From contig SBFT01000290.1 in the NCBI GenBank assembly GCA_006227805.1, forward strand, positions 1 to 27,511: 27,511 bases of DNA. The letters are read 5' to 3'. This stretch comes from Paracoccaceae bacterium (GTDB lineage Bacteria > Pseudomonadota > Alphaproteobacteria > Rhodobacterales > Rhodobacteraceae). Shown here one piece after another: positions 5,383 to 26,831 of this stretch (its first letter is position 1; the number at the start of each line of letters is the position of its first letter). Both the position numbers and the translations under genes were made by a program. The notes under the pieces were generated by a model, which saw only the letters and a list, made by a program, of their open reading frames with translations, did not search any database and was not told where the DNA came from.

Positions 5383-5407
5383 GCGGCGCGGGCACGACCC
5401 GCGCCGC
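5383..5407 (+). terminator. GC-rich intercistronic hairpin after the SBP gene (mRNA stabiliser or partial terminator)
   Basis: Perfect 10-bp stem GCGGCGCGGG/CCCGCGCCGC with a 5-nt loop (CACGA), followed only by ATTTCCC (weak U tract). Confidence 0.6.
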
Positions 5408-7293: not shown

Positions 7294-8934
7294 ATGGATC
7301 AGAAATACGTCCTCGAAGTCAGCGGCCTGACCGTCAGCCTGCCGAAGAACGCCGACCGCCCCAACGCGGTGGAAGACATCAGCTTCACCGTCGCCCCCGG
7401 CGAGATCGTCTGCGTGGTGGGCGAAAGCGGATCGGGCAAGTCGGTCACGGCATCCGCCGTGATGGGCCTTCTGCCCGACGCGCTGCGCCCCACGGGGGGC
7501 CGGACGCTGCTGGAAGGCGAAGACACGCTGAAGGCCGAGAAGAGCCGCCTGCGCGACCTGCGCGGCACCCGCATGGCGATGATCTTCCAGGAACCGATGA
7601 CGGCGCTGAACCCGGTCACGCGGGTGGGCGAACAGATCGCCGAGATGCTGGAGATTCACACCAGCATGACCGCGGCGGAACGCCGGAGCCGCGCCATCGA
7701 GACCATGGACGCCGTGCACCTGCCCGATCCCGAGAAGATGGTGGACGCCTTCCCGCATCAGCTGTCCGGCGGTCAGCGCCAGCGCATCATGATCGCGATG
7801 GCCCTCGTGCTGGACCCCGCGCTGCTGATCGCGGACGAACCGACGACGGCGCTCGATGTGACGACGCAGGCGCAGATCCTCAAGCTGATCAAGGAAATGC
7901 AGGAGCGCCGCGGCACGGGTGTGCTGTTCATCACCCATGACTTCGGCGTGGTGGCGGAAATCGCGGACCGCATCGTGGTCATGCAGCATGGCCGCATCGT
8001 CGAATACGGCGACCGCGACGACGTCCTGCGCCGGCCCAAGGCGCCCTATACCCAGATGCTGATGGCCTCGGTCCCCTCGATGACGCCGCCCGAGCGCAGC
8101 GCGAAGACCGGCGAGACCGCGGTCGAGGTCAAGGCGCTGAACAAGGTCTACGGCAAGACCGGGTGGCTGTCGAAACAGCGGATCGTCCACGCCGTCAAGG
8201 ACGTGGACCTGATGCTGCGCAAGGGAGAGACGCTGGGCATCGTGGGCGAAAGCGGATCGGGCAAGTCGACCGTCGCGCGCTGCATCGCGCGGCTGATCGA
8301 CCCGACCTCGGGCTCGATCAGCCTGCACGGCACGGAAATCGCGACGATCAGCCAGGCCCAGCTGCGCCCGCACCGCCGCAAGGTGCAGATCGTGTTCCAG
8401 GACCCCTACCGCTCGCTCAACCCGCGGCGCACCATCGGCCAGTCGCTGATCGAGGCGCCCGTGAATTTCGGGATGCCCGAAGCGCAGGCCCTGCAGATGG
8501 CGCGCGACCTGATGGAGCTGGTGGGCCTGTCCGGCGACGCGCTGGAACGCTATCCGCACCAGTTTTCCGGCGGACAGCGCCAGCGCATCTGCATCGCCCG
8601 CGCGCTGGCGGTGGAACCCGAGGTCCTGATCGCGGACGAGGCGGTCTCGGCGCTGGATGTCAGCGTGCAGGCGCAGGTCTTGAAGCTGCTCGACGACATC
8701 CGGGTGAAATACAACCTCGCGATGCTGTTCATCACCCATGACCTGCGCGTTGCCGCCCAGATCTGCGACCGGCTGATCGTCATGCAGAAGGGCGTGATCG
8801 TGGAACACGGACCCACGCGCAAGGTCTACCAGGAGCCCCAGCACCCCTATACGCGCCTGCTCCTGGATGCGGCCCCCGGGCAGGGCATGACCTTCGGAGC
8901 CGAGATCGCACCCGCCGCAGCCCAAGGAAACTGA
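7294..8934 (+). CDS. Peptide ABC transporter ATP-binding protein with two fused NBDs (DppD/F-like)
   Basis: Two Walker A motifs (GESGSGKS), two signatures (LSGGQRQR, FSGGQRQR), two Walker B motifs (IADE) and two H-loops (ITHD). ATG 7294 preferred over 7267. Confidence 0.95.
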   Translation: MDQKYVLEVSGLTVSLPKNADRPNAVEDISFTVAPGEIVCVVGESGSGKSVTASAVMGLLPDALRPTGGRTLLEGEDTLKAEKSRLRDLRGTRMAMIFQEPMTALNPVTRVGEQIAEMLEIHTSMTAAERRSRAIETMDAVHLPDPEKMVDAFPHQLSGGQRQRIMIAMALVLDPALLIADEPTTALDVTTQAQILKLIKEMQERRGTGVLFITHDFGVVAEIADRIVVMQHGRIVEYGDRDDVLRRPKAPYTQMLMASVPSMTPPERSAKTGETAVEVKALNKVYGKTGWLSKQRIVHAVKDVDLMLRKGETLGIVGESGSGKSTVARCIARLIDPTSGSISLHGTEIATISQAQLRPHRRKVQIVFQDPYRSLNPRRTIGQSLIEAPVNFGMPEAQALQMARDLMELVGLSGDALERYPHQFSGGQRQRICIARALAVEPEVLIADEAVSALDVSVQAQVLKLLDDIRVKYNLAMLFITHDLRVAAQICDRLIVMQKGVIVEHGPTRKVYQEPQHPYTRLLLDAAPGQGMTFGAEIAPAAAQGN

Positions 8935-11371: not shown

Positions 11372-13663
11372 ATGAAATTCCGCTTTCCCATCATCATCAT
11401 CGACGAGGACTTCCGCTCGGAGAACTCCTCCGGCCTGGGCATCCGCGCCATGGCCAAGGCCATCGAGGACGAGGGCTTCGAAGTGGTGGGCGTCACCAGC
11501 TATGGCGACCTGTCGCAATTCGCCCAGCAGCAATCGCGCGCCAGCGCCTTCGTCCTGTCGATCGACGACGAGGAATTCACCCCCGGCCCCGATCTCGATC
11601 CGGCGGTGGTCAACCTGCGCAACTTCATCGAGGAAGTGCGCTGGAAGAACGCCGAGGTACCGATCTATGTCTATGGCGAGACCAAGACCAGCCGCCATCT
11701 GCCCAACGACATCCTGCGCGAGCTGCACGGCTTCATCCACATGTTCGAGGACACGCCGGAATTCGTCGCGCGCCACATCCTGCGCGAGGCGAAAAGCTAT
11801 ATCGAGAGCATCCAGCCCCCCTTCTTCAAGGCACTGGTCGATTATGCCGGGGACGGGTCCTATTCCTGGCATTGCCCGGGCCATTCCGGCGGCGTCGCCT
11901 TCCTGAAAAGCCCCGTGGGGCAGATGTATCACCAGTTCTACGGCGAGAACATGCTGCGCGCGGATGTCTGCAACTCGGTCGAGGAGCTGGGCCAGCTGCT
12001 CGACCACAACGGCGCCATCGGCGCCTCCGAACGCAACGCCGCGCGGATCTTCAACGCCGATCACTGCTTTTTCGTGACGAACGGGACCTCGACCTCGAAC
12101 AAGATGGTCTGGCACCACACGGTGGTCCCCGGCGACGTGGTGGTGGTGGACCGCAACTGCCACAAGTCGATCCTGCACTCGATCATCATGACCGGCGCGA
12201 TCCCGGTCTTCCTGAAGCCCACGCGCAACCATTACGGCATCATCGGCCCGATCCAGCAGCGTGAATTCGAGATCGAGACCATCCGCGAGAAGATCCGCCA
12301 GAACCCGCTTCTGGCCCATGTGGACGCCGACACGGTCAGGCCGCGCATCCTGGCGCTGACGCAATCGACCTATGACGGGGTGCTCTACAACACCGAGACG
12401 ATCAAGACCCTGCTCGACGGCCATGTCGAGAACCTGCATTTCGACGAGGCCTGGCTGCCGCACGCCGCCTTCCACCCCTTCTATGGCACCTATCACGCGA
12501 TGGGCCGCAAGCGCGCGCGCCCGCGCCAGTCGGTGACCTATGCCACCCAGTCGATCCACAAGCTGCTGGCCGGGATCAGCCAGGCCAGCCATATCCTGGT
12601 GCAGGACAGCCAGGAGACGAAACTGGACCGGCATCTCTTCAACGAAGCCTACCTGATGCACATCTCGACCAGTCCGCAATATTCGATCATCGCCAGCTGC
12701 GACGTGGCCGCCGCGATGATGGAGCCACCGGGCGGAACCGCGCTGGTCGAGGAAAGCCTGCTCGAGGCGATGGATTTCCGCCGCGCCATGCGCAAGGTCG
12801 AGGCTGAATACGGGGCCGAGGACTGGTGGTTCCGGGTCTGGGGCCCGGACGCGCCCGAGGAGGAAGGCATCGGCGAACAGCGCCCCTGGGTCCTGCGCCG
12901 CACCGATACCGACGGCATCCAGAAGGCCGACGGCAAGGAAAGCTGGCACGCCTTCGGCGACATGTCCCCGGGCTTCAACATGCTGGACCCGATCAAGGCG
13001 ACGCTGATCACGCCGGGCCTGCGCATCGACGGTCATTTCGAGGACACCGGCATCCCTGCCTCGATCGTGACCAAATACCTGGCCGAACATGGCGTGGTGG
13101 TCGAGAAGACCGGCCTCTACAGCTTCTTCATCATGTTCACGATCGGGATCACCAAGGGGCGCTGGAACACGCTTCTGGCGGACCTGCAGCAGTTCAAGGA
13201 CGATTACGCCAGGAACCAGCCGCTCTGGCGCTGCATGCCGGAATTCTGCGCCAGGCATCCCAGATACGAGAAGATGGGCCTGCGCGACCTGTGCCAGCAT
13301 GTGCACCGGCTTTACGCCAAATACGACGTCGCGATCCTGTCGACCGAGATGTATCTCAGCGACCTCACCCCGATGATGACGCCCAGCGAGGCCTATGCCC
13401 ACATCGCGCGGCGCAGCACGGAACGGGTGCCGATCGACGATCTGGAAGGCCGCGTCACGACCAGCCTGGTGACACCCTATCCCCCCGGCATTCCGCTTCT
13501 GGTTCCGGGCGAGGTCTTCAACCGCAGGATCGTGGACTACCTGAAGTTCAACCGCGAATTCGCGCGCGAATGCCCGGGCTTCGAGACCGACATTCACGGA
13601 TTGGTCCAGGAAACCGGCGCGGACGGCGTGGTGCGCTACTACGCCGATTGCGTCGCGGCCTGA
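11372..13663 (+). CDS. Fold-type I PLP-dependent lysine/ornithine/arginine decarboxylase with N-terminal wing (receiver-like) domain
   Basis: WHCPGHSGG, FVTNGTSTSNK, VDRNCHKS, TQSTYDG, HFDEAW, TQSIHKL (PLP lysine), STSPQY, PYPPGIPLLVPGE. SD-like AGAAGGA upstream. Substrate cannot be assigned from the sequence alone. Confidence 0.93.
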   Translation: MKFRFPIIIIDEDFRSENSSGLGIRAMAKAIEDEGFEVVGVTSYGDLSQFAQQQSRASAFVLSIDDEEFTPGPDLDPAVVNLRNFIEEVRWKNAEVPIYVYGETKTSRHLPNDILRELHGFIHMFEDTPEFVARHILREAKSYIESIQPPFFKALVDYAGDGSYSWHCPGHSGGVAFLKSPVGQMYHQFYGENMLRADVCNSVEELGQLLDHNGAIGASERNAARIFNADHCFFVTNGTSTSNKMVWHHTVVPGDVVVVDRNCHKSILHSIIMTGAIPVFLKPTRNHYGIIGPIQQREFEIETIREKIRQNPLLAHVDADTVRPRILALTQSTYDGVLYNTETIKTLLDGHVENLHFDEAWLPHAAFHPFYGTYHAMGRKRARPRQSVTYATQSIHKLLAGISQASHILVQDSQETKLDRHLFNEAYLMHISTSPQYSIIASCDVAAAMMEPPGGTALVEESLLEAMDFRRAMRKVEAEYGAEDWWFRVWGPDAPEEEGIGEQRPWVLRRTDTDGIQKADGKESWHAFGDMSPGFNMLDPIKATLITPGLRIDGHFEDTGIPASIVTKYLAEHGVVVEKTGLYSFFIMFTIGITKGRWNTLLADLQQFKDDYARNQPLWRCMPEFCARHPRYEKMGLRDLCQHVHRLYAKYDVAILSTEMYLSDLTPMMTPSEAYAHIARRSTERVPIDDLEGRVTTSLVTPYPPGIPLLVPGEVFNRRIVDYLKFNREFARECPGFETDIHGLVQETGADGVVRYYADCVAA

Positions 13664-13706: not shown

Positions 13707-14042
13707 TCAGTCGCGCGGGTCCTGCGTGTCGAGCTGGGCATCCGCCTCGGCGATGCCCCAGGGCTTGATCCCCATGCGCAAGGCCGCGCGCCCGATCATG
13801 TGCGCCCCGATGGGTGCCGTCAGCAGCAGGAAGATCACGATCAGCACGCAACGCAGCACCACGCCCGCGTCGGCGAAATGCAGCGCCACGCCCGCCAGCA
13901 CCAGGCCCGATCCCAGCGTGCCGACCTTGGTGGCCGCGTGCATCCGGATGTAGACATCCGGCAGGCGAAAGACGCCGATCCCCGCCACGACGATGAAGAT
14001 CGCGCCCGAGAAGATCAGGAAAGCGGTCAGGGCCTCGATCAT
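13707..14042 (-). CDS. mrpG: Mrp/Pha/Mnh cation:H+ antiporter subunit G
   Basis: From ATG 14042: MIEALTAFLIFSG...GIGVFRLPDVYIRMHAATKVGTLG...FLLLTAPIGAHMIGRAA. ATGA overlap with mrpF. Confidence 0.93.
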   Translation of the reverse strand: MIEALTAFLIFSGAIFIVVAGIGVFRLPDVYIRMHAATKVGTLGSGLVLAGVALHFADAGVVLRCVLIVIFLLLTAPIGAHMIGRAALRMGIKPWGIAEADAQLDTQDPRD

Positions 14043-14338
14043 GGCTGGTTCTCCGCATCCTCGCGCCGCAGGACCTGGCGCTCGGCGAAGCGGGCCAGCG
14101 CGACGGTCGCCAGAAAGCCCACCAGGGCCAGCACCAACGCCACGTCGAGGAAGGTGGAATCCCCCGACCGGATCGCGGCCAGTCCGCAGAAGGCGACGAT
14201 GGCCACCGTCATCATGTCCAGCGCCACGATGCGGTCCGCCAGGCTGGGTCCGACGGCCAGGCGCCAGCCCGCGAAGGCGACCGAGGCGAAGACCGCGACG
14301 AAACCCAGCGTCACTGCCCAATACAGAAGCTCGGTCAT
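14039..14338 (-). CDS. mrpF: Mrp antiporter subunit F
   Basis: From ATG 14338: MTELLYWAV...RLAVGPSLADRIVALD...LDVALVLALVGFLATVALARF. ATGA overlap with mrpE. Confidence 0.93.
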   Translation of the reverse strand: MTELLYWAVTLGFVAVFASVAFAGWRLAVGPSLADRIVALDMMTVAIVAFCGLAAIRSGDSTFLDVALVLALVGFLATVALARFAERQVLRREDAENQP

Positions 14339-14820
14339 GTCCTGTCCTCCACGGCGTCGATCACCCATTTCTCCATCCCCGATTTCAGGGCGCGGGTCAC
14401 GGCCTCGGGGTCGTCCGCGAACATCGCGTGCACCTTCAGGGTCTTGCGGTCGGGGCTGACATCGATGCTCAGCGTGCCGGGCGTCAGCGAGATCAGGTTC
14501 GTCACCAGAAGGATGCCGGTATCGGTCTTCACGTCCAGCGGAACGTCGATGATCGCGGGCCGCGCGCGGTGGCGCGGCGTGACCACGTCCCAGAACACCT
14601 GGAAGCTCGACACGATCAGTTCGTAATGGAACAGCACGATCAGCTTCAGCCAGTACCAGACCCGCAGGAAATAGCTCGAGCGCGTGCCCGTCAGCGGCTG
14701 AAGCAGCCACAGCGTCACGTAGCCCACGACCAGTCCCGAGAGGACTGTCAGCCAGGTGAAGCCCCCGAAGAGCAGCGCCCAGGCGGCGGCCATGACCAGG
14801 TTTGCCGCGAAATGGCTCAT
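14335..14820 (-). CDS. mrpE: Mrp antiporter subunit E
   Basis: RPAIIDVPLD, NLISLTPGTLSIDVS, LKVHAM. ATGA overlap with mrpD. Confidence 0.94.
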   Translation of the reverse strand: MSHFAANLVMAAAWALLFGGFTWLTVLSGLVVGYVTLWLLQPLTGTRSSYFLRVWYWLKLIVLFHYELIVSSFQVFWDVVTPRHRARPAIIDVPLDVKTDTGILLVTNLISLTPGTLSIDVSPDRKTLKVHAMFADDPEAVTRALKSGMEKWVIDAVEDRT

Positions 14821-16316
14821 GCGTCACCTCCCAGAACGGCGGCCAGATAGGCGCTGGGATCCAGAAGCTGGGCCGCCGCGCGTTCGGCGAAGACGACGAA
14901 GGGTTCCGGGAAGAAGCCGATCACCAGCGTCAGGGCCGCCAGCGCCGCGATGGGCAGGAGAAGCGGCCGCATCTGCGCGCGCGGCACGCGCGACATCACG
15001 GGATCGATCCCCTCGGGATGGGCCTTCCAGAACGCCTCGGCCCAGATCTTGGTCATCGAGTAGATCGTCAGAAGGCCCACGACCAGCGCGACGCCCGCAA
15101 GGACCCAGGCCTCGACCTCGAGCGAGGCCGCGACCAGCACGTATTTCGCCCAGAAGCCCGACAGCGGCGGAAAGCCCGCCAGCGAAAAGGCCGGGATCAG
15201 GAACAGGACGGCCAGCAGGGGCGCGGACTTGTAGAGGCCCCCGATCTTCGGCAACTCGGTCGATCCGGTCAGGCGTTCGACCACGCCGCCGACCAGGAAC
15301 AGGTTCGCCTTCACGATGATGTGGTGGACCAGGTAGAAGACCGCGCCCGCCACCGCCAGAGGCGTCAGCAGCGCCAGGCCCAGGATCATGTAGCCGATCT
15401 GGCTGACGATGTGGAAGGACAGGATCTTGCGGATGTCGTTCTGCGCCGCCGCCCCAAGGACGCCCGTGATCATCGTCAGCGCCGCCACCCAGAGAAGGAT
15501 GTCATGGGTGAAGCCCACGTCGCCGTTGAAGACCAGCGTGAACATCCGGATCAGCGCATAGACGCCCACCTTGGTCAGCAGGCCGGCGAAGACCGCCGAG
15601 ACCGAGAAGGCCGGCGTGTGATAGGCGGCGGGCAGCCAGAAGAACAGCGGAAAGACCGCCGCCTTCACCCCGAAGGCGATCATGAACATCACCGCGACGA
15701 CCGTGACCAGCCCCTGGTTTTCCAGCTGCGGCACCGTGCGCGCCAGGTCCGCCATGTTCAGCGTGCCCGTCATGCCATAGAGCAGGCCCACCCCGGCCAG
15801 GAACAGGATGGTCGAGATCAGGTTCAGCGTGACGTATTTCACCCCCCCGTCGATCTGTTCGCGCCGCCCGCCCAGGACCAGAAGCCCGAAGGACGAGATC
15901 AGCATGACCTCGAACCAGACATAGAGGTTGAAGAGGTCGCCCGTCAGGAACGCGCCGACGACGCCGCCGATCAGCACGTTGAACAGCGCGTGATAGCCCA
16001 GATACTCGGCCCGCTCGCCGATGTCGGACAAGGCATAGACCGACACCGCCAGCGCCGTGATCGCGGTGATCACGACCATGACCGCGCCCAGCAGATCGGC
16101 CACCAGCGTGATCCCGAAGGGCGCGGCCCATTGGCCCATCTGCCCCGCGATCACGCCCTCGCGCAGCACCTGCTGCATCAGCGCGGCTGCGGCCAGCAAC
16201 AGAAGGACATTGCCGCCCACGCTGATCCAGCGCCCGGCCGGTCCCATGCGCAACAGGAAGGACAGCACCGCCGTCAGGAAGGGCAGCACCAGCGGTGTAG
16301 CAAGATACCAGCTCAC
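14817..16316 (-). CDS. mrpD: Mrp antiporter subunit D
   Basis: GTG start. LTGDLFNLYVWFEVML, FGVKAAVFPLFFWLPAAY, LLTKVGVYA, KILSFHIVSQIG, GFPPLSGFWAK. Confidence 0.95.
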   Translation of the reverse strand: MSWYLATPLVLPFLTAVLSFLLRMGPAGRWISVGGNVLLLLAAAALMQQVLREGVIAGQMGQWAAPFGITLVADLLGAVMVVITAITALAVSVYALSDIGERAEYLGYHALFNVLIGGVVGAFLTGDLFNLYVWFEVMLISSFGLLVLGGRREQIDGGVKYVTLNLISTILFLAGVGLLYGMTGTLNMADLARTVPQLENQGLVTVVAVMFMIAFGVKAAVFPLFFWLPAAYHTPAFSVSAVFAGLLTKVGVYALIRMFTLVFNGDVGFTHDILLWVAALTMITGVLGAAAQNDIRKILSFHIVSQIGYMILGLALLTPLAVAGAVFYLVHHIIVKANLFLVGGVVERLTGSTELPKIGGLYKSAPLLAVLFLIPAFSLAGFPPLSGFWAKYVLVAASLEVEAWVLAGVALVVGLLTIYSMTKIWAEAFWKAHPEGIDPVMSRVPRAQMRPLLLPIAALAALTLVIGFFPEPFVVFAERAAAQLLDPSAYLAAVLGGDA

Positions 16317-16678
16317 GTCCGGGCATCCTCGCGCGGTTCGGCGACGCGCATCTCGTCGCTGTTGAGGGTCCCGAGCGAGGTATAGGCGCGGAACACCAGC
16401 ACCAGGGCGAAGGCGAAGAGACCGAAGCCGATCACGATGGCCGTCAGCACCAGCGCCTGCGGCAGCGCGTTCGCGACGGTCCCGACCGGCGCGTCGAGGC
16501 CTTCCGGGACCAGGGGCGGCTTGCCTTCGGTCAGGCGTCCGGCGGTGAAGATCGTCAGGTTGGCGGCGTTCGAGATCAGCACCAGCCCGAAGATGAAGCG
16601 CAGCACGTTGCGCGCCAGCATCAGGTAGACCGAGGCCGCGACCAGCACGCCGATGGTGATGGCGAGAAGGGCTTCCAT
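16313..16678 (-). CDS. mrpC: Mrp antiporter subunit C
   Basis: From ATG 16678: MEALLAITIG...YLMLARN...LISNAANL...ANALPQALVLTAIVIGFG. Confidence 0.94.
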   Translation of the reverse strand: MEALLAITIGVLVAASVYLMLARNVLRFIFGLVLISNAANLTIFTAGRLTEGKPPLVPEGLDAPVGTVANALPQALVLTAIVIGFGLFAFALVLVFRAYTSLGTLNSDEMRVAEPREDART

Positions 16679-17097
16679 CAGATCTCCTCCTCCATCGCGA
16701 AGACCAGTGTCAGAACCGATCCGAACACGACGAGGTAGACCCCGATGTCGAAGACGAGGACCGTGGACAGCGGCAGGCCCTTGTCCGTCTCGGTGGCCCC
16801 CAGGAACAGCCATTGCCCGGTGAACAGCGCGTCCCCGAAGAGCGCGGCCGCGATCCCCGCCAGAAGCGCGATGCCAAGGCCCGCGACGGCGATGTTCTGC
16901 GGCAGGACACGCAAGGCGCGGCGCGCGTCCCCGGTGCCGCAGGCGATGGCATAGAGGACAAAGCCGGTCGACCCGATCAGGCCGCCGATGAAACCGCCGC
17001 CCGGCTCGTTGTGGCCGCGCAGCAGCATGTAGACCGAGAACAGCAGCAACAGCCCCGACAAGGCCCGCGTGCCGGCCTGCAGGATCACGGAATTCAC
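16678..17097 (-). CDS. mrpB: Mrp antiporter subunit B
   Basis: From GTG 17097 (GTGA overlap with the mrpA stop): NSVILQAGTR...LRGHNEPGGGFIGGL...FDIGVYLVVFG. Confidence 0.92.
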   Translation of the reverse strand: MNSVILQAGTRALSGLLLLFSVYMLLRGHNEPGGGFIGGLIGSTGFVLYAIACGTGDARRALRVLPQNIAVAGLGIALLAGIAAALFGDALFTGQWLFLGATETDKGLPLSTVLVFDIGVYLVVFGSVLTLVFAMEEEI

Positions 17098-19397
17098 GAT
17101 GCATCCTCCCCTTTGCGGGTCCGGCTCGAACGGCCCGTCGGCCCCTGGTCGGTGGTGCGCAAGAGCGCATAGGCCGCCAGCGCCGCGATCACGACAACCG
17201 CGATCTCGCCGAAGGTGTCGAGCGCCCTGAAATCGACCAGGATCACGTTGACGATGTTGCGTCCGAAAGCCTCGGGCCAGGAGGTGACCTCGAAGTAATC
17301 GGTCAGGCGGCGATCCATCGGCACTTCCAGGACGGCCAGCAGGGTCAATGTGACCACCGCGCCCACCGCCAGGCCCAGAAGCGCGTCGCGCGGACGCCAG
17401 TCGCGCGTTCCCGCAGGGTCGAGCGCGGGCAGGCGCAGAAGCGCAACCGCGACCAGCACGACGACCAGCGTCTCGACCAGAAGCTGGGTGATCGCGACGT
17501 CGGGCGCACCGAAGACGATGAAGATCATCGCGACGCCGATGCCCACGACGCCGAGGCTGGCCATCGCGGTGATCCGCGACCCCGTCAGCGCCGCCATCAC
17601 CGCGCCGGCCATGATCAGCACCGCCAGCGCCAGGTTCTTCCAGGTCACCGAGGACATGTCCGGCAGTCCCGGCAGCGCATCGCGCGCCAGCATCGTGCCG
17701 CCAAGGCCGACAAGGACCGTCAGGAACGTCACCAGGATGTAGATGCGCAATTCGCCCGATTGCAGGACGCGCGTCTGCCAGGCGGCCAGCCCCTTCAGAC
17801 CCTCGAGGAAGCGGTCCCAGCCATTGTCGAAGTTCGGCGCGGCTAGTTCTGCCCGGGCGAGCGCGGCACGCAGGCGCACATGGCCAAGGTAGATCGCCAG
17901 GCCCAGCGCCACGGTGGCGATGGACAGGATCAGCGGCATGTTCACGCCGGCCCAGAGCTTGAGGTCCTTCGCGTCCTCGGCCGACCCCAGCAGCGACGCC
18001 ACCGTCGGCGCGATCAGCGTGTCCTGAAGAAGGGCGGGAAAGACGCCGAAGACAACGCCCAGCACCGCCAGGATGACCGGACCCGCCAGCATCTGCCAGG
18101 GCGCCTCGTGCGGGGTGTGGGGCATCGCGCCGCCCGCGGGACGCCAGAAGGGCCGGAACGCGACCACGCCCGCCACCGCCAGCATCAGCGCATTGGCGAT
18201 CACCAGCGCGCCCACGACCAGCGCGGGCCCGGACCCCGCCTCGAGCGCGCCCGCGTAGAGAAGCTCCTTCCCGATGAAGCCCAGGAAGGGCGGGAAACCC
18301 GCCATCGACAGGGACGCCAGCGCCGCGGCCAGCGCGGTGAAGGGCATCGCGCGGGCCAGCCCGCCCAGGATGTCCGCCTCGCGCGTGCCGGTGCCGTGGT
18401 CGATGCAGCCCACCACCAGGAACAGCCCCGCCTTGTAGAGCGAATGGACGATCAGGAAGGTCGCGAAGGCGGTCATCGCGTAGCCGGACTCCTGGCCCAG
18501 GAACAGCGTCAGCGTGCCCAGCGCCATCAGCGTCGTATAGGCCAGCGCCTGTTTCAGATCGCTCTGGCGCAGGGCAAGGACGCTGGCGAAGACGGCGGTG
18601 AAGCCCCCGGCGATGGTCAGCGTCCACATCCAGACATCGGTGCCCGCGAACCCCGGATGCAGCCGTGCCATCAGGTAGACGCCCGCCTTCACCATGGTGG
18701 CGGAATGGAGGAAGGCCGACACGGGCGTGGGCGCGGCCATCGCGTTGGGCAGCCAGAAATGGAACGGGAACTGCGCGGATTTCGTGAAGGTGCCCGCCAG
18801 AATCAGGATCAGGATCGGCAGGTAGAGCGCATGGGCCTTCAGCGCGTCACCCTGTGCCAGGATCACCGACAATTCGAAACTGCCCGCGACCATGCCCAGA
18901 AGGATGAACCCCGCCAGCAGCGCCAGCGCCCCGGCGCCGGTGACGAAGAGCGCCTGCAAGGCGGAACGGCGGCCCTTGTAGGTCTCGTGCCCGAAACCGA
19001 TCAGCAGGTAGGAGGTGATCGTCGTCAGTTCCCAGAACACGAACAGCGCGATCAGGTTGTCGGCCAGCACCAGCCCCAGCATCGACAGCATGAAGCCGGC
19101 CAGGAACAGGGCAAAGCGCGCGAATTGCGGATGCCCCGCCAGGTAGGTGTTGGAATAGAGAAACACCAGCGCGCCGATCCCGCTGATCAGCAGTGCGAAG
19201 GTCAGGCTGAGACCGTCGACCAGGAACGACAGCGAGATGCCCAGCGACGGCACCCAGTCCCATTGCAGGCGCAGCACCTCGCCCGCCGAGACGGCGGGCA
19301 GAAAGCCCAGGAACCAGACGAAAAGCCCGGCGGCCAGACCCACCGGAGCCAGGCCCACCAGCCCGTTCCCCTTCGCCTGCGCTGCGGTCTCACTCAT
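17094..19397 (-). CDS. mrpA: Mrp antiporter subunit A (separate from MrpB; group 1 arrangement)
   Basis: From ATG 19397 (ATGA overlap with usp). VFWELTTITSYLLIG, TKSAQFPFHFWLPNAMAAPTPVSAFLHSATMVKAG, GAPDVAITQLLVE, GRNIVNVILVDFRALDTFGE. Confidence 0.95.
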   Translation of the reverse strand: MSETAAQAKGNGLVGLAPVGLAAGLFVWFLGFLPAVSAGEVLRLQWDWVPSLGISLSFLVDGLSLTFALLISGIGALVFLYSNTYLAGHPQFARFALFLAGFMLSMLGLVLADNLIALFVFWELTTITSYLLIGFGHETYKGRRSALQALFVTGAGALALLAGFILLGMVAGSFELSVILAQGDALKAHALYLPILILILAGTFTKSAQFPFHFWLPNAMAAPTPVSAFLHSATMVKAGVYLMARLHPGFAGTDVWMWTLTIAGGFTAVFASVLALRQSDLKQALAYTTLMALGTLTLFLGQESGYAMTAFATFLIVHSLYKAGLFLVVGCIDHGTGTREADILGGLARAMPFTALAAALASLSMAGFPPFLGFIGKELLYAGALEAGSGPALVVGALVIANALMLAVAGVVAFRPFWRPAGGAMPHTPHEAPWQMLAGPVILAVLGVVFGVFPALLQDTLIAPTVASLLGSAEDAKDLKLWAGVNMPLILSIATVALGLAIYLGHVRLRAALARAELAAPNFDNGWDRFLEGLKGLAAWQTRVLQSGELRIYILVTFLTVLVGLGGTMLARDALPGLPDMSSVTWKNLALAVLIMAGAVMAALTGSRITAMASLGVVGIGVAMIFIVFGAPDVAITQLLVETLVVVLVAVALLRLPALDPAGTRDWRPRDALLGLAVGAVVTLTLLAVLEVPMDRRLTDYFEVTSWPEAFGRNIVNVILVDFRALDTFGEIAVVVIAALAAYALLRTTDQGPTGRSSRTRKGEDAS

Positions 19398-20359
19398 GCC
19401 TTCGTGCCCTCGGCCAGCTGGACCGGGCTGACGAAGCCCCTGGGCTTGACCGTCAGCACCGAACAATCAAGACGGTTCAACACGGTTTCGGCCGTATTGC
19501 CGATGAAGAGACCGGCAATTCCCGTCCGTGCCAGCGTGCCCATGACAAGCGTGTCGATCCTTTCGCGATCCGCATGTTCGATCAGAACATCGGCCGGAAC
19601 GCCCTTGACGTGAAGCACGCGCGTGTTCTGGGCGAAAGCGGTGAAATCGTCCATCAGCTTTTTCAGGCCCGAGGCACTGTCCCGCTCGCATTTGTCGAGG
19701 ATTGCCTGAATTTCGGGCTCGGGCATGTTCACGAAGGAATGCCGCAGGGTCTGTTCCTCTTCCAGCTGCCAGGCATTGACCACGTCCAGACGGGCGCCAT
19801 CGTGCACGCAAAGCGAGGTGGCCAGTTCCATCACCATGTGATTGAGGCCATCGCGGACAGGGTCCGAGGGGTCGGGATCGACCGCGGCCATGATGCGCCT
19901 GGCGTTCGGTTCGGTCGTGCTGTTGAGCAGCCAGACAGGGCATGGGCACTTGCGCAGAAGATGCAGGTCGGGGCCGCGCAGGGTCCGGCTTTCGGGCGTG
20001 CGCTGTGCTCCCTTCAGGACAAGATCGTGACCGTTGGCCAGAACCGCGCGGATCGTCTCGATGAACCCCACGCCCTGAAACACTTGCGTGCGGACGTTCA
20101 GACCCTCGCTGCGCAGGGGCTCGGCCAGGGTGTCCAGGCGATCGGCGTGAAACCCGATCACGCGATCCTCGACCTCGCGCGCACGCATCCCGGGCAGCGC
20201 CGAGAAGAGCCGGGCGAAATCACCCGGGGCGGTGTCGATGATGTCGACCAGCGTCAGCGTCGCGCCATTGGCCTCGGCCAGCCAGCGGGCGCGCGCGAAC
20301 AGCGCGTCGGTGGCGCTGGCCGCATCCGCCACCACCAGGATGTTCCTGAACCTGTTCAT
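19394..20359 (-). CDS. Tandem-domain universal stress protein (UspE-like)
   Basis: From ATG 20359: MNRFRNILVV; HDLVLKG...DLHLLRKCPCPVWL; IMAAVD; IDTLVMGTLARTGIAGLFIGNTAETVLNRLDCSVLTVKP. Confidence 0.92.
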   Translation of the reverse strand: MNRFRNILVVADAASATDALFARARWLAEANGATLTLVDIIDTAPGDFARLFSALPGMRAREVEDRVIGFHADRLDTLAEPLRSEGLNVRTQVFQGVGFIETIRAVLANGHDLVLKGAQRTPESRTLRGPDLHLLRKCPCPVWLLNSTTEPNARRIMAAVDPDPSDPVRDGLNHMVMELATSLCVHDGARLDVVNAWQLEEEQTLRHSFVNMPEPEIQAILDKCERDSASGLKKLMDDFTAFAQNTRVLHVKGVPADVLIEHADRERIDTLVMGTLARTGIAGLFIGNTAETVLNRLDCSVLTVKPRGFVSPVQLAEGTKA

Positions 20360-20387
20360 CAGCCGCCCCCCGTTTTCGTTCCAGATC

Positions 20388-20416
20388 AGATAGGGTCGCA
20401 TCCCTTATTGATCCAA
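20388..20416 (-). promoter_or_regulatory. Candidate promoter for the usp-mrpABCDEFG operon
   Basis: Minus strand TTGGAT, 17 nt, CTATCT, resembling alphaproteobacterial TTG...CTATAT/CTATCT promoters. Predicted +1 near 20381, about 22 nt before the usp ATG. Confidence 0.45.
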
Positions 20417-20432
20417 TCGAAAAAGGAAGTAT

Positions 20433-20457
20433 TTTCGATAGAAATCCTCTATCGAAA
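20433..20457. promoter_or_regulatory. LysR/OxyR-type operator (ATAG-N7-CTAT core)
   Basis: Perfect 9-bp inverted repeat TTTCGATAG-aaatcct-CTATCGAAA. It contains the T-N11-A LysR box and the OxyR ATAG-N7-CTAT unit, and lies between the divergent usp and lysR starts. Confidence 0.8.
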
Positions 20458-20471
20458 CCCCCAGAGCCCCC

Positions 20472-21392
20472 ATGCCGACGCTCCAGCAACTCCGATATCT
20501 CGTCGCTGTGGACGATACCCTGCATTTCCGCCGCGCCGCCGAGGCCTGCCATGTCACGCAACCCACGCTCAGCGCCCAGATCAAGGACCTGGAAAGCAAG
20601 CTGGGTGCGGTGCTTGTCGAACGAAGCCGCGCGCGGGTGGTGATGACGCCCCTGGGCGCGGCGGTCGCCGATCATGCCAGACGCGCCCTGCGCGAGGTGG
20701 ACGAGATCCGCAACCTCTCGGTCCTGAACGGCGGCACGCTGCAAAGCACGATCAAGGTGGGCATCGTGCAATCGCTCGGGTCCTACCTTCTGCCGCTGAT
20801 CGTGCCCGACCTGCACCAGAGCCACCCCAAGCTGAAGCTTTATGTCCGCGAAGGCCTGCCGCATCACCTGACCGAGGCGCTGGCGACCGGCGCGGTCGAT
20901 CTTCTGCTGTTCCCGCTGCCGGTGCGGGGCGCGGAATACGACCAGCTGTCGCTGTTCCGCGAGCCGCTTCTTCTGGTGATCCCCCATGACCACCCCTTCG
21001 CCGCGCGCGACAACATCACGCCGGACCTGCTGAAGGGCGAGACGATCCTGGCGCTGGAACCGGGGCACAAGCTCTACGAGCAGGTGCGCGTGATCTGCGA
21101 CCAGTATGGCGCGCATCTGTCTCACGACTACGAAGGCACGTCGCTCGATACCCTGCGGCAGATGGTGGCGATGGGGATGGGCGTGTCGCTTCTGCCCGCG
21201 CTCTACGTCAAGTCCGAGGTCGCTCACCAGGACATCGTCGTCGCCCGCCGCTTCGAGGGGACGCCGCCCTCGCGCACGATCGGCATGGTCTGGCGGCAGG
21301 GCACGGTGCGCGAACAGGAATACCGCGATCTGGGGCGCGAGATCTGCGCGATCCTGAAGGCCGGCGCGCCGGAACTGACGATCCTGGGCTAG
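20472..21392 (+). CDS. LysR family regulator, OxyR-like but lacking the peroxidatic cysteine
   Basis: HTH LHFRRAAEACHVTQPTLSAQI, close to E. coli OxyR HFRRAADSCHVSQPTLSGQI. The sensing region reads LEPGHKLYEQVRVIC versus OxyR LEDGHCLRDQAMGFC. Also TSLDTLRQMV and RTIGMVWR. Confidence 0.92.
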   Translation: MPTLQQLRYLVAVDDTLHFRRAAEACHVTQPTLSAQIKDLESKLGAVLVERSRARVVMTPLGAAVADHARRALREVDEIRNLSVLNGGTLQSTIKVGIVQSLGSYLLPLIVPDLHQSHPKLKLYVREGLPHHLTEALATGAVDLLLFPLPVRGAEYDQLSLFREPLLLVIPHDHPFAARDNITPDLLKGETILALEPGHKLYEQVRVICDQYGAHLSHDYEGTSLDTLRQMVAMGMGVSLLPALYVKSEVAHQDIVVARRFEGTPPSRTIGMVWRQGTVREQEYRDLGREICAILKAGAPELTILG

Positions 21393-26797: not shown

Positions 26798-26831
26798 AAA
26801 AACGGAACCGCCGGGGAATGCCCCCGGCGGT
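26798..26831 (-). terminator. Rho-independent terminator of the SRPBCC-like gene
   Basis: Perfect 10-bp stem ACCGCCGGGG/CCCCGGCGGT (26807-26831) with a 5-nt loop. The minus strand continues TCCGTTTTT. Located about 28 nt after the stop at 26859. Confidence 0.75.

Follow-up and report, generated by a model that had tools for sequence, protein, structure and literature searches.

A two-part OxyR-type operator predicted between an OxyR-derived LysR-type regulator and a divergent usp-mrp antiporter operon in Rhodobacteraceae

The short spacer between a LysR-type regulator gene and a divergent operon encoding a universal stress protein (usp) and an Mrp antiporter appears to hold a real, canonical LysR-type operator, that of an OxyR-derived regulator of Mrp. 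We examined a 27,511-nt stretch of DNA from a Paracoccaceae bacterium (hereafter, the window; contig SBFT01000290.1 of assembly GCA_006227805.1), for which a first-pass annotation made from the letters alone had proposed that the regulator controls usp-mrp. Conservation of the motif and of the gene layout among relatives, together with the lack of the site at mrp loci without the regulator, lends that reading support. We consider it probable that two elements of the spacer, box 1 and box 2, form the operator of the neighboring regulator, which would activate usp-mrp and repress itself. The spacer and its flanking genes were placed as follows.

20360-20471: regulator/usp spacer, 112 bp, with divergent genes on either side
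20472-21392, plus strand: OxyR-like LysR-type regulator, 306 aa (Pfam HTH_1 and LysR_substrate)
19394-20359, minus strand: tandem universal stress protein (UspE-like) gene, first in the divergent operon (Pfam Usp, E 6e-31)
13707-19466, minus strand: mrpA-G antiporter genes, after usp (Pfam)
17094-19466, minus strand: mrpA (longest ORF)
16313-17170, minus strand: mrpB/C
14817-16316, minus strand: mrpD
14335-14820, minus strand: mrpE
13707-14321, minus strand: mrpF/G

The mrp genes matched the Pfam families Proton_antipo_M, MbhD, MbhE, Oxidored_q2, MNHE and PhaG_MnhG_YufB. The usp gene likely starts at the ATG at 20359, and its product scored 146.6 bits against the NCBIfam UspE family, under the cut-off. 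For the regulator, the best NCBIfam family was OxyR, at 245.5 bits and hence below the 329-bit cut-off, and the best solved relative was P. aeruginosa OxyR (4x6g, E 5e-59), whose recognition helix (SQPTLSVGVKKLE) is nearly identical to that of the regulator (TQPTLSAQIKDLE). NhaR was not among its 25 best NCBIfam matches, and NhaR orthology was not indicated by this measure. The first-pass annotation had called the protein a Cys-less OxyR, which is incorrect: it has three cysteines (C26, C209 and C292), and only the C199 position is replaced, with K200 aligning with the peroxidatic C199 of OxyR and C209 kept as the equivalent of C208. The peroxide-sensing C199/C208 pair is therefore incomplete. 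A true OxyR is encoded elsewhere in the same genome (contig C291, locus L032), divergent from katG, with both C199 and C208 present in the motif GHCFRDQ...C; it shares 38% identity with the mrp regulator. A third OxyR-like paralogue (contig C90, locus L024; 46% identity) sits behind a TRAP DctM gene and is read the same way.

Two elements of the spacer are central to the argument.

20433-20457, centre 20445: box 1, perfect palindrome TTTCGATAG-N7-CTATCGAAA, arms at 20433-20441 and 20449-20457
20438-20452: box 1 core, ATAG-N7-CTAT, proposed high-affinity recognition site of the neighboring LysR-type regulator
20405-20422: box 2, TTATTGATCCAATCGAAA, with ATTG-N7-CGAA at 20407-20421 and ATCG at 20416-20419, proposed activation site(s)

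Box 1 is indeed the perfect palindrome centred at 20445 that the first-pass annotation had read, and it has the highly symmetric T-N11-A dyad of a LysR recognition site, lying within ATAG-N7-CTAT and flanked by perfect 9+9 arms. With up to three mismatches allowed, the pattern occurred once in the window and never in 100 shuffles. A genome-wide search of the 2.75-Mb, 74%-complete draft, a scan that had been suggested at the outset, returned a sole other match with 3 mismatches, leaving box 1 unique in both window and genome. Scanning the window with a box 1 matrix likewise found no second site, the best secondary match being the ATTG-N7-CGAA block of box 2.

On its own, the palindrome is weak evidence, because this genome is rich in perfect 9+9/N7 inverted repeats (95 observed vs ~31 expected from composition, three of them in the window). 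We therefore dropped the argument that box 1 is a rare palindrome. Most such repeats in this GC-rich genome are GC-rich hairpins, whereas the box 1 dyad is AT-rich. The other two perfect repeats in the window, at 5383-5407 and 26807-26831, are GC-rich (GCGGCGCGG... and ACCGCCGGG...) and are probably terminator or structural hairpins. The genome also contains dispersed paired palindromes, CCGGAAAC-N7-GTTTCCGG and CCGTTTTC/CCGATTTC-N7-GAAA(A/T)CGG, with 8-9-nt arms and usually arranged as two hairpins 24 nt apart (C24 5097/5121/5172, C119 7404/7428, C212 1998/2022, C320 8494/8518, C321 4480/4504, C349 3977/4001, C258 5171-5220 and C353 11423/11448); these look like a REP/BIME-type repeat element.

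Scanning GTDB species genomes identified 80 orthologous regulator loci (48-81% protein identity), mostly from Rhodobacterales (Aestuariivita, Rhodophyticola, Tateyamaria, Rhodovulum, Salipiger, Thalassovita, Roseicyclus and others), with a few from Kiloniellales, Rhodospirillales and Hyphomicrobiales. Their layouts were distributed as follows.

47 loci: regulator divergent from usp-mrpA
20 loci: regulator divergent from mrpA directly
3 loci: mrp genes present in another orientation
4 loci: flank too short for judgement
6 loci: no mrp gene within 4 kb

The regulator was thus divergent from (usp-)mrpA in 67 of the 80 loci and a perfect ATAG-N7-CTAT was found in 62, counts that overstate independent support to the extent that related loci share ancestry. 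Both the motif and the divergent layout, whose conservation had been proposed as a check, are therefore widely retained. In 58 of the 62, the dyad lay no more than 40 nt from the regulator start; the distance to the start codon was usually 11-14 nt in orthologues and is 19 nt in the window. On the other side, 39 of 43 loci had 75-84 nt between the dyad and the usp start codon; the mode, 79 nt, is also the window value.

An ungapped alignment of 70 loci anchored on the ATAG-N7-CTAT dyad gave an extended box 1 consensus of TTGATAGA-nnTTn-TCTATcA. Columns outside the anchor were strongly conserved at the box 1 flanks (-2, -1, +4, +10 and +16), across box 2 (-31 to -16) and in a -10-like block (-50 to -43), while the columns between these blocks carried ~0.1 bit. 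In box 1, the flanks TTG...cA as well as inner positions 4 and 10 were conserved despite playing no part in the anchoring. A separate MAFFT alignment, made from 22 complete spacers (A2), repeated this result, with AAT.G of box 2, AT.G and CTAT invariant. Conservation in orthologous loci puts box 1 far beyond chance. Because the same two-part site recurs at the same spot in ~60 related marine bacteria, box 1 is very probably the DNA docking site of the neighboring regulator.

The geometry from box to mrp is not universal, because two relatives depart from it. In the nearest relative (Aestuariivita sp. M30B59, same genus; genome G001, locus L033), the box is degenerate, GATTG-N7-CTATAA (ATTG...CTAT), and all that is left of usp between the regulator and mrpA (11907-12505) is the final 76 codons. 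Transcription of the mrp operon would have to cross ~370 nt of usp debris; box-2-like and -10-like blocks are still present despite the degenerate box. The second (genome G012, locus L034, 7979-8330) has a 48%-identical orthologue and no usp, with the dyad CGATTG-N7-CTATGA 9-21 nt from the regulator start. The ~330 nt between dyad and mrpA hold a 32-codon ORF and, at ~8165-8215, a strong terminator-like hairpin with a T-run; this stretch may be a leader, an attenuator or a small RNA.

The second conserved block, ATTGnTCCAATCGAAA, keeps a constant distance to box 1 and includes ATTG-N7-CGAA. The first-pass annotation had placed this element at 20407-20421 and described it as degenerate; the position stands, the description does not, for the block is among the best conserved. 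Its consensus, tgATTGnTCcAATCGAAA at -33 to -16, carries 1.1-1.9 bits per column over the 70 loci, and the window site scores 33.2 of a possible 35.4 on the box 2 matrix, compared with 17.9 for the next match in the genome. Within box 2, an ATCG element and the ATAG of box 1 are exactly 22 nt apart; this ATCG is present at -22 to -19 in 58-69 of the 70 loci, the phase of the first OxyR element. The canonical OxyR site is ATAG-N7-CTAT-N7-ATAG-N7-CTAT (PMC5720770). Read against these four elements, the third and fourth are perfect here and the second, at -11 to -8, is not conserved, which leaves a reading as a full four-element site incomplete. We read the operator as OxyR-type in sequence and phase, though the regulator itself falls outside OxyR membership. 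ATTG-N7-CGAA and ATCG, at fixed spacing, are also the lower-symmetry companion sites near the predicted -35 that are looked for in a LysR-type operator.

Two divergent promoters are predicted in the spacer.

20411-20416, minus strand: predicted usp-mrp -35 element, TTGGAT, in columns conserved as TT(G/T)GAn
20388-20393, minus strand: predicted usp-mrp -10 element, CTATCT, after TTGGAT and a 17-nt spacer; predicted start ~20381
20408-20413 and 20430-20435, plus strand: predicted regulator promoter, TTGATC and TATTTT with a 16-nt spacer

The arrangement TTGGAT-N17-CTATCT, as first proposed, is present in the reverse complement of 20388-20416. Its -10 element is conserved at a fixed distance, with C1, A3 and T6 (window positions 20388, 20391 and 20393) at least 90% conserved in the 22 spacers of alignment A2. 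The third conserved block of the 70 loci, A..T.GGG at -50 to -43, corresponds to CCCTATCT on the minus strand and is also held at a fixed distance. Compared with the alphaproteobacterial (rhizobial) sigma-70 consensus, CTTGAC-N17-CTATAT (PMC2873474), the -10 element matches at 5/6 positions (CTATCT vs CTATAT) and the -35 element TTGGAT at only 3/6; the weak -35 match would fit an activator-dependent usp-mrp promoter. A scan of 20250-20600 for E. coli-type promoters and terminators found none, and the promoter hexamers assigned here rest on conservation and the rhizobial consensus. The centre of box 1 (20445) is ~64 nt from the usp-mrp start so predicted, at a place where the E. coli-type scan had no promoter. 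Relative to that start, the predicted geometry would put box 1 at ~-64, ATTG-N7-CGAA at ~-33 and the ATCG-led dyad at ~-42.

For the regulator promoter, the 70 loci gave the consensus TTGnTC at -30 to -25 and TATTTT at -7 to -2, so that box 2 would carry two overlapping, divergent -35 hexamers. The regulator transcript would start near 20442, inside box 1; a start in or before box 1 is expected because the gap from dyad to start codon is usually 11-14 nt. With divergent genes only 112 bp apart, the spacer has the form of a bidirectional LysR-type promoter region in which box 1 overlaps the regulator's predicted promoter. The consensus for general-stress sigma-EcfG promoters is GGAAC-N16/17-CGTT. 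Inspection by eye found a GGAAC on the minus strand at 20382-20378 with no CGTT at the required spacing and no room for one ahead of the usp ATG, and this candidate was rejected. Public sequencing runs containing the locus matched as DNA metagenome contigs only, with no RNA run among them.

As a control, 80 further genomes of the family supplied 29 mrp loci, which we compared according to whether the regulator was present. Box 1 matrix scores were 9.4-41.9 in the nine loci with an adjoining regulator, and in six of these the best box 2 match was exactly 30 nt upstream of the best box 1 match. The 20 loci without a regulator (5 of the same Mrp type and 15 of the fused-MrpAB Pha type) scored 14.6 or less, and 19 of them 4.1 or less. 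The operator site is thus missing from mrp loci that have no regulator, being absent or weak there. The composite AATCGAAA-N14-16-ATAG-N7-CTAT was similarly restricted, with 12 matches in 201 family genomes (one for the reversed control) and one match per genome, this genome excepted. Scanning 61 family genomes for TGATAG-N7-CTATCA with one mismatch gave 0-13 matches per genome, vs 0-5 for the control, which was too noisy to define a regulon.

The only other two-part site in this genome is on contig C220 (locus L115, 2089-2140), where CCGATAGAAAATAGCTATCGG is followed 12 nt later by CTTTCGATTTG, in the order and orientation of usp-mrp and with one additional base of spacing. A distant LysR gene (24% identical to the mrp regulator) ends here, its stop codon overlapping the site, and ~70 nt further downstream is a D-glutamate cyclase-DctPQM TRAP transporter operon. 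The site may mark a second member of the regulon or serve as the operator of that other LysR regulator; it had no match in a search of two same-genus genomes. Separately, in another genome (G065, locus L132), a Pha-type operon (fused MrpAB) has an AGATAG-N7-CTATCA dyad ~240 nt ahead of it and no OxyR-like regulator in the 1.5-kb flank.

From the observed sequence elements, their conservation and fixed spacing, and their co-occurrence with the regulator, we infer both binding and its sign. The spacer would be a compact region of divergent promoters built around a two-part LysR-type operator, in which box 1 serves as the high-affinity recognition site for the regulator encoded at 20472-21392 and box 2 provides weaker activation sites beside and over the usp-mrp -35 element. 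Given a signal, a regulator tetramer on box 1 (~-64) and box 2 (~-33 or -42) would activate the intrinsically weak usp-mrpA-G promoter. Because the regulator transcript is predicted to begin in or before box 1, the same bound complex would cover the -10/+1 region of the regulator's own promoter, leading to autorepression.

Part of this evidence could be read differently. Box 1 lies just 11-19 nt from the regulator start codon, which suits autorepression, and it might do nothing but autoregulate the regulator gene, with usp-mrp driven independently and the gene neighborhood kept for other reasons. The distance of 330-500 nt between box and mrpA in G012 and G001 is compatible with such a role, as are the 6 of 80 loci without an mrp gene within 4 kb, some of which still have a box-like dyad. 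However, box 2 and the -10-like block are held at fixed spacing toward usp/mrp, as is the usp start at 75-84 nt, and this is hard to explain without coupling of both promoters; the synteny in 67 of 80 loci points the same way. We therefore regard a purely autoregulatory box as rather unlikely.

It is distinctly improbable that another LysR-type protein binds the site, for example the true katG-linked OxyR on contig C291, an arrangement that would connect mrp with oxidative stress. In its favor, the canonical OxyR half-operator is ATAG-N7-CTAT (PMC5720770), and the genome does encode a true OxyR with C199 and C208, a third paralogue, and the distant LysR gene on contig C220 with a similar two-part site at its 3' end. 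Yet the site is present in 9/9 mrp loci with the regulator and absent or weak in the 20 without it, whose genomes should have OxyR too, and the katG spacer of the true OxyR is not among the top box 1 matrix matches in the genome. That the inverted repeat arose by chance, or acts as an RNA hairpin within the regulator leader rather than as a protein site, is hardly credible. The 95 perfect 9+9/N7 repeats of the genome (3 in the window) favor chance, and the arms could pair as RNA if the regulator transcript starts upstream, but ATAG and CTAT are invariant over 70 loci, the spacer is always 7 nt with variable sequence, and the dyad is AT-rich, unlike the GC-rich hairpins of this genome. As invariant rather than covarying arms are the signature of a protein site, the RNA-hairpin reading was rejected.

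The closest known counterparts are the OxyR operators of E. coli and P. aeruginosa (katG, ahpC and oxyR-oxyS), with which the site shares the ATAG-N7-CTAT dyad, an ATAG-like ATCG in the same 22-nt phase, and a position that abuts the predicted -35 element of the activated promoter while overlapping the regulator's predicted own promoter. Unlike those operators, it has three of four elements conserved and a far more perfect palindrome in box 1. The regulator differs from OxyR in having Lys at the C199 position and scoring below the OxyR equivalog cut-off, and its apparent target is an Mrp antiporter operon rather than peroxide defence.

The textbook LysR model has a recognition site at ~-65, activation sites near -35, negative autoregulation and a bidirectional promoter (PMC11495319). 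Like classical divergent LysR promoters (BenM, CbnR and OccR, described by the sliding-dimer model), the site has a symmetric T-N11-A dyad at a predicted -64, sites of lower symmetry at distances of 22 and 31 bp beside the predicted -35 element, and predicted autorepression. It differs from them in that its positions are relative to a predicted start, and in that the activation block is conserved as strongly as the recognition site, probably because this block carries both -35 hexamers.

The nhaR gene of E. coli lies downstream of nhaA, not divergent from it. NhaR is a Na+-responsive LysR activator of this Na+/H+ antiporter gene (PMC11495319), and here, too, a LysR-type regulator is paired with a Na+/H+ antiporter; however, the regulator is not an NhaR orthologue (its best NCBIfam family being OxyR), and the antiporter is of the multisubunit Mrp type. 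LysR-type control of Mrp-like genes also has a precedent in NdhR/CcmR of Synechocystis, a repressor of the carbon-concentrating regulon that senses 2-oxoglutarate and 2-phosphoglycolate and whose regulon includes the Mrp-like mnh operon (PMC4390856). Unlike the regulator described here, NdhR/CcmR is not of the OxyR type and is not a dedicated divergent neighbor of mrp.

No LysR regulator of a proteobacterial Mrp operon emerged from the literature searched, nor did OxyR-type control of Mrp; the words promoter, regulator and transcription are absent from a major Mrp review. The operator itself is canonical and of a known type, and the novelty lies in an OxyR-derived, non-peroxidatic regulator being paired with Mrp. 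We tentatively suggest, as a possibility that falls short of being probable, that an OxyR-lineage regulator that lost peroxide sensing has become the dedicated sensor-activator of the Mrp operon, responding to salt, alkaline pH or another ionic cue. Such a protein would play an NhaR-like role while keeping the ancestral OxyR DNA code and four-groove spacing, and, if this holds, proteobacterial Mrp systems would gain their first described dedicated transcription factor.

Mrp antiporters play a central part in tolerance of salt and alkaline conditions, yet almost nothing has been described of how their transcription is controlled. The operator offers the first testable handle on how these antiporters are switched on: its precise, conserved geometry defines a testable circuit by naming the bases to change, where transcription should start and the autoregulatory loop to expect, and cultured carriers exist in Tateyamaria, Salipiger marinus, Rhodovulum iodosum and Thalassovita mediterranea. 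More broadly, the locus may be a clean example of a redox sensor lineage re-used for a different stress with its DNA code intact.
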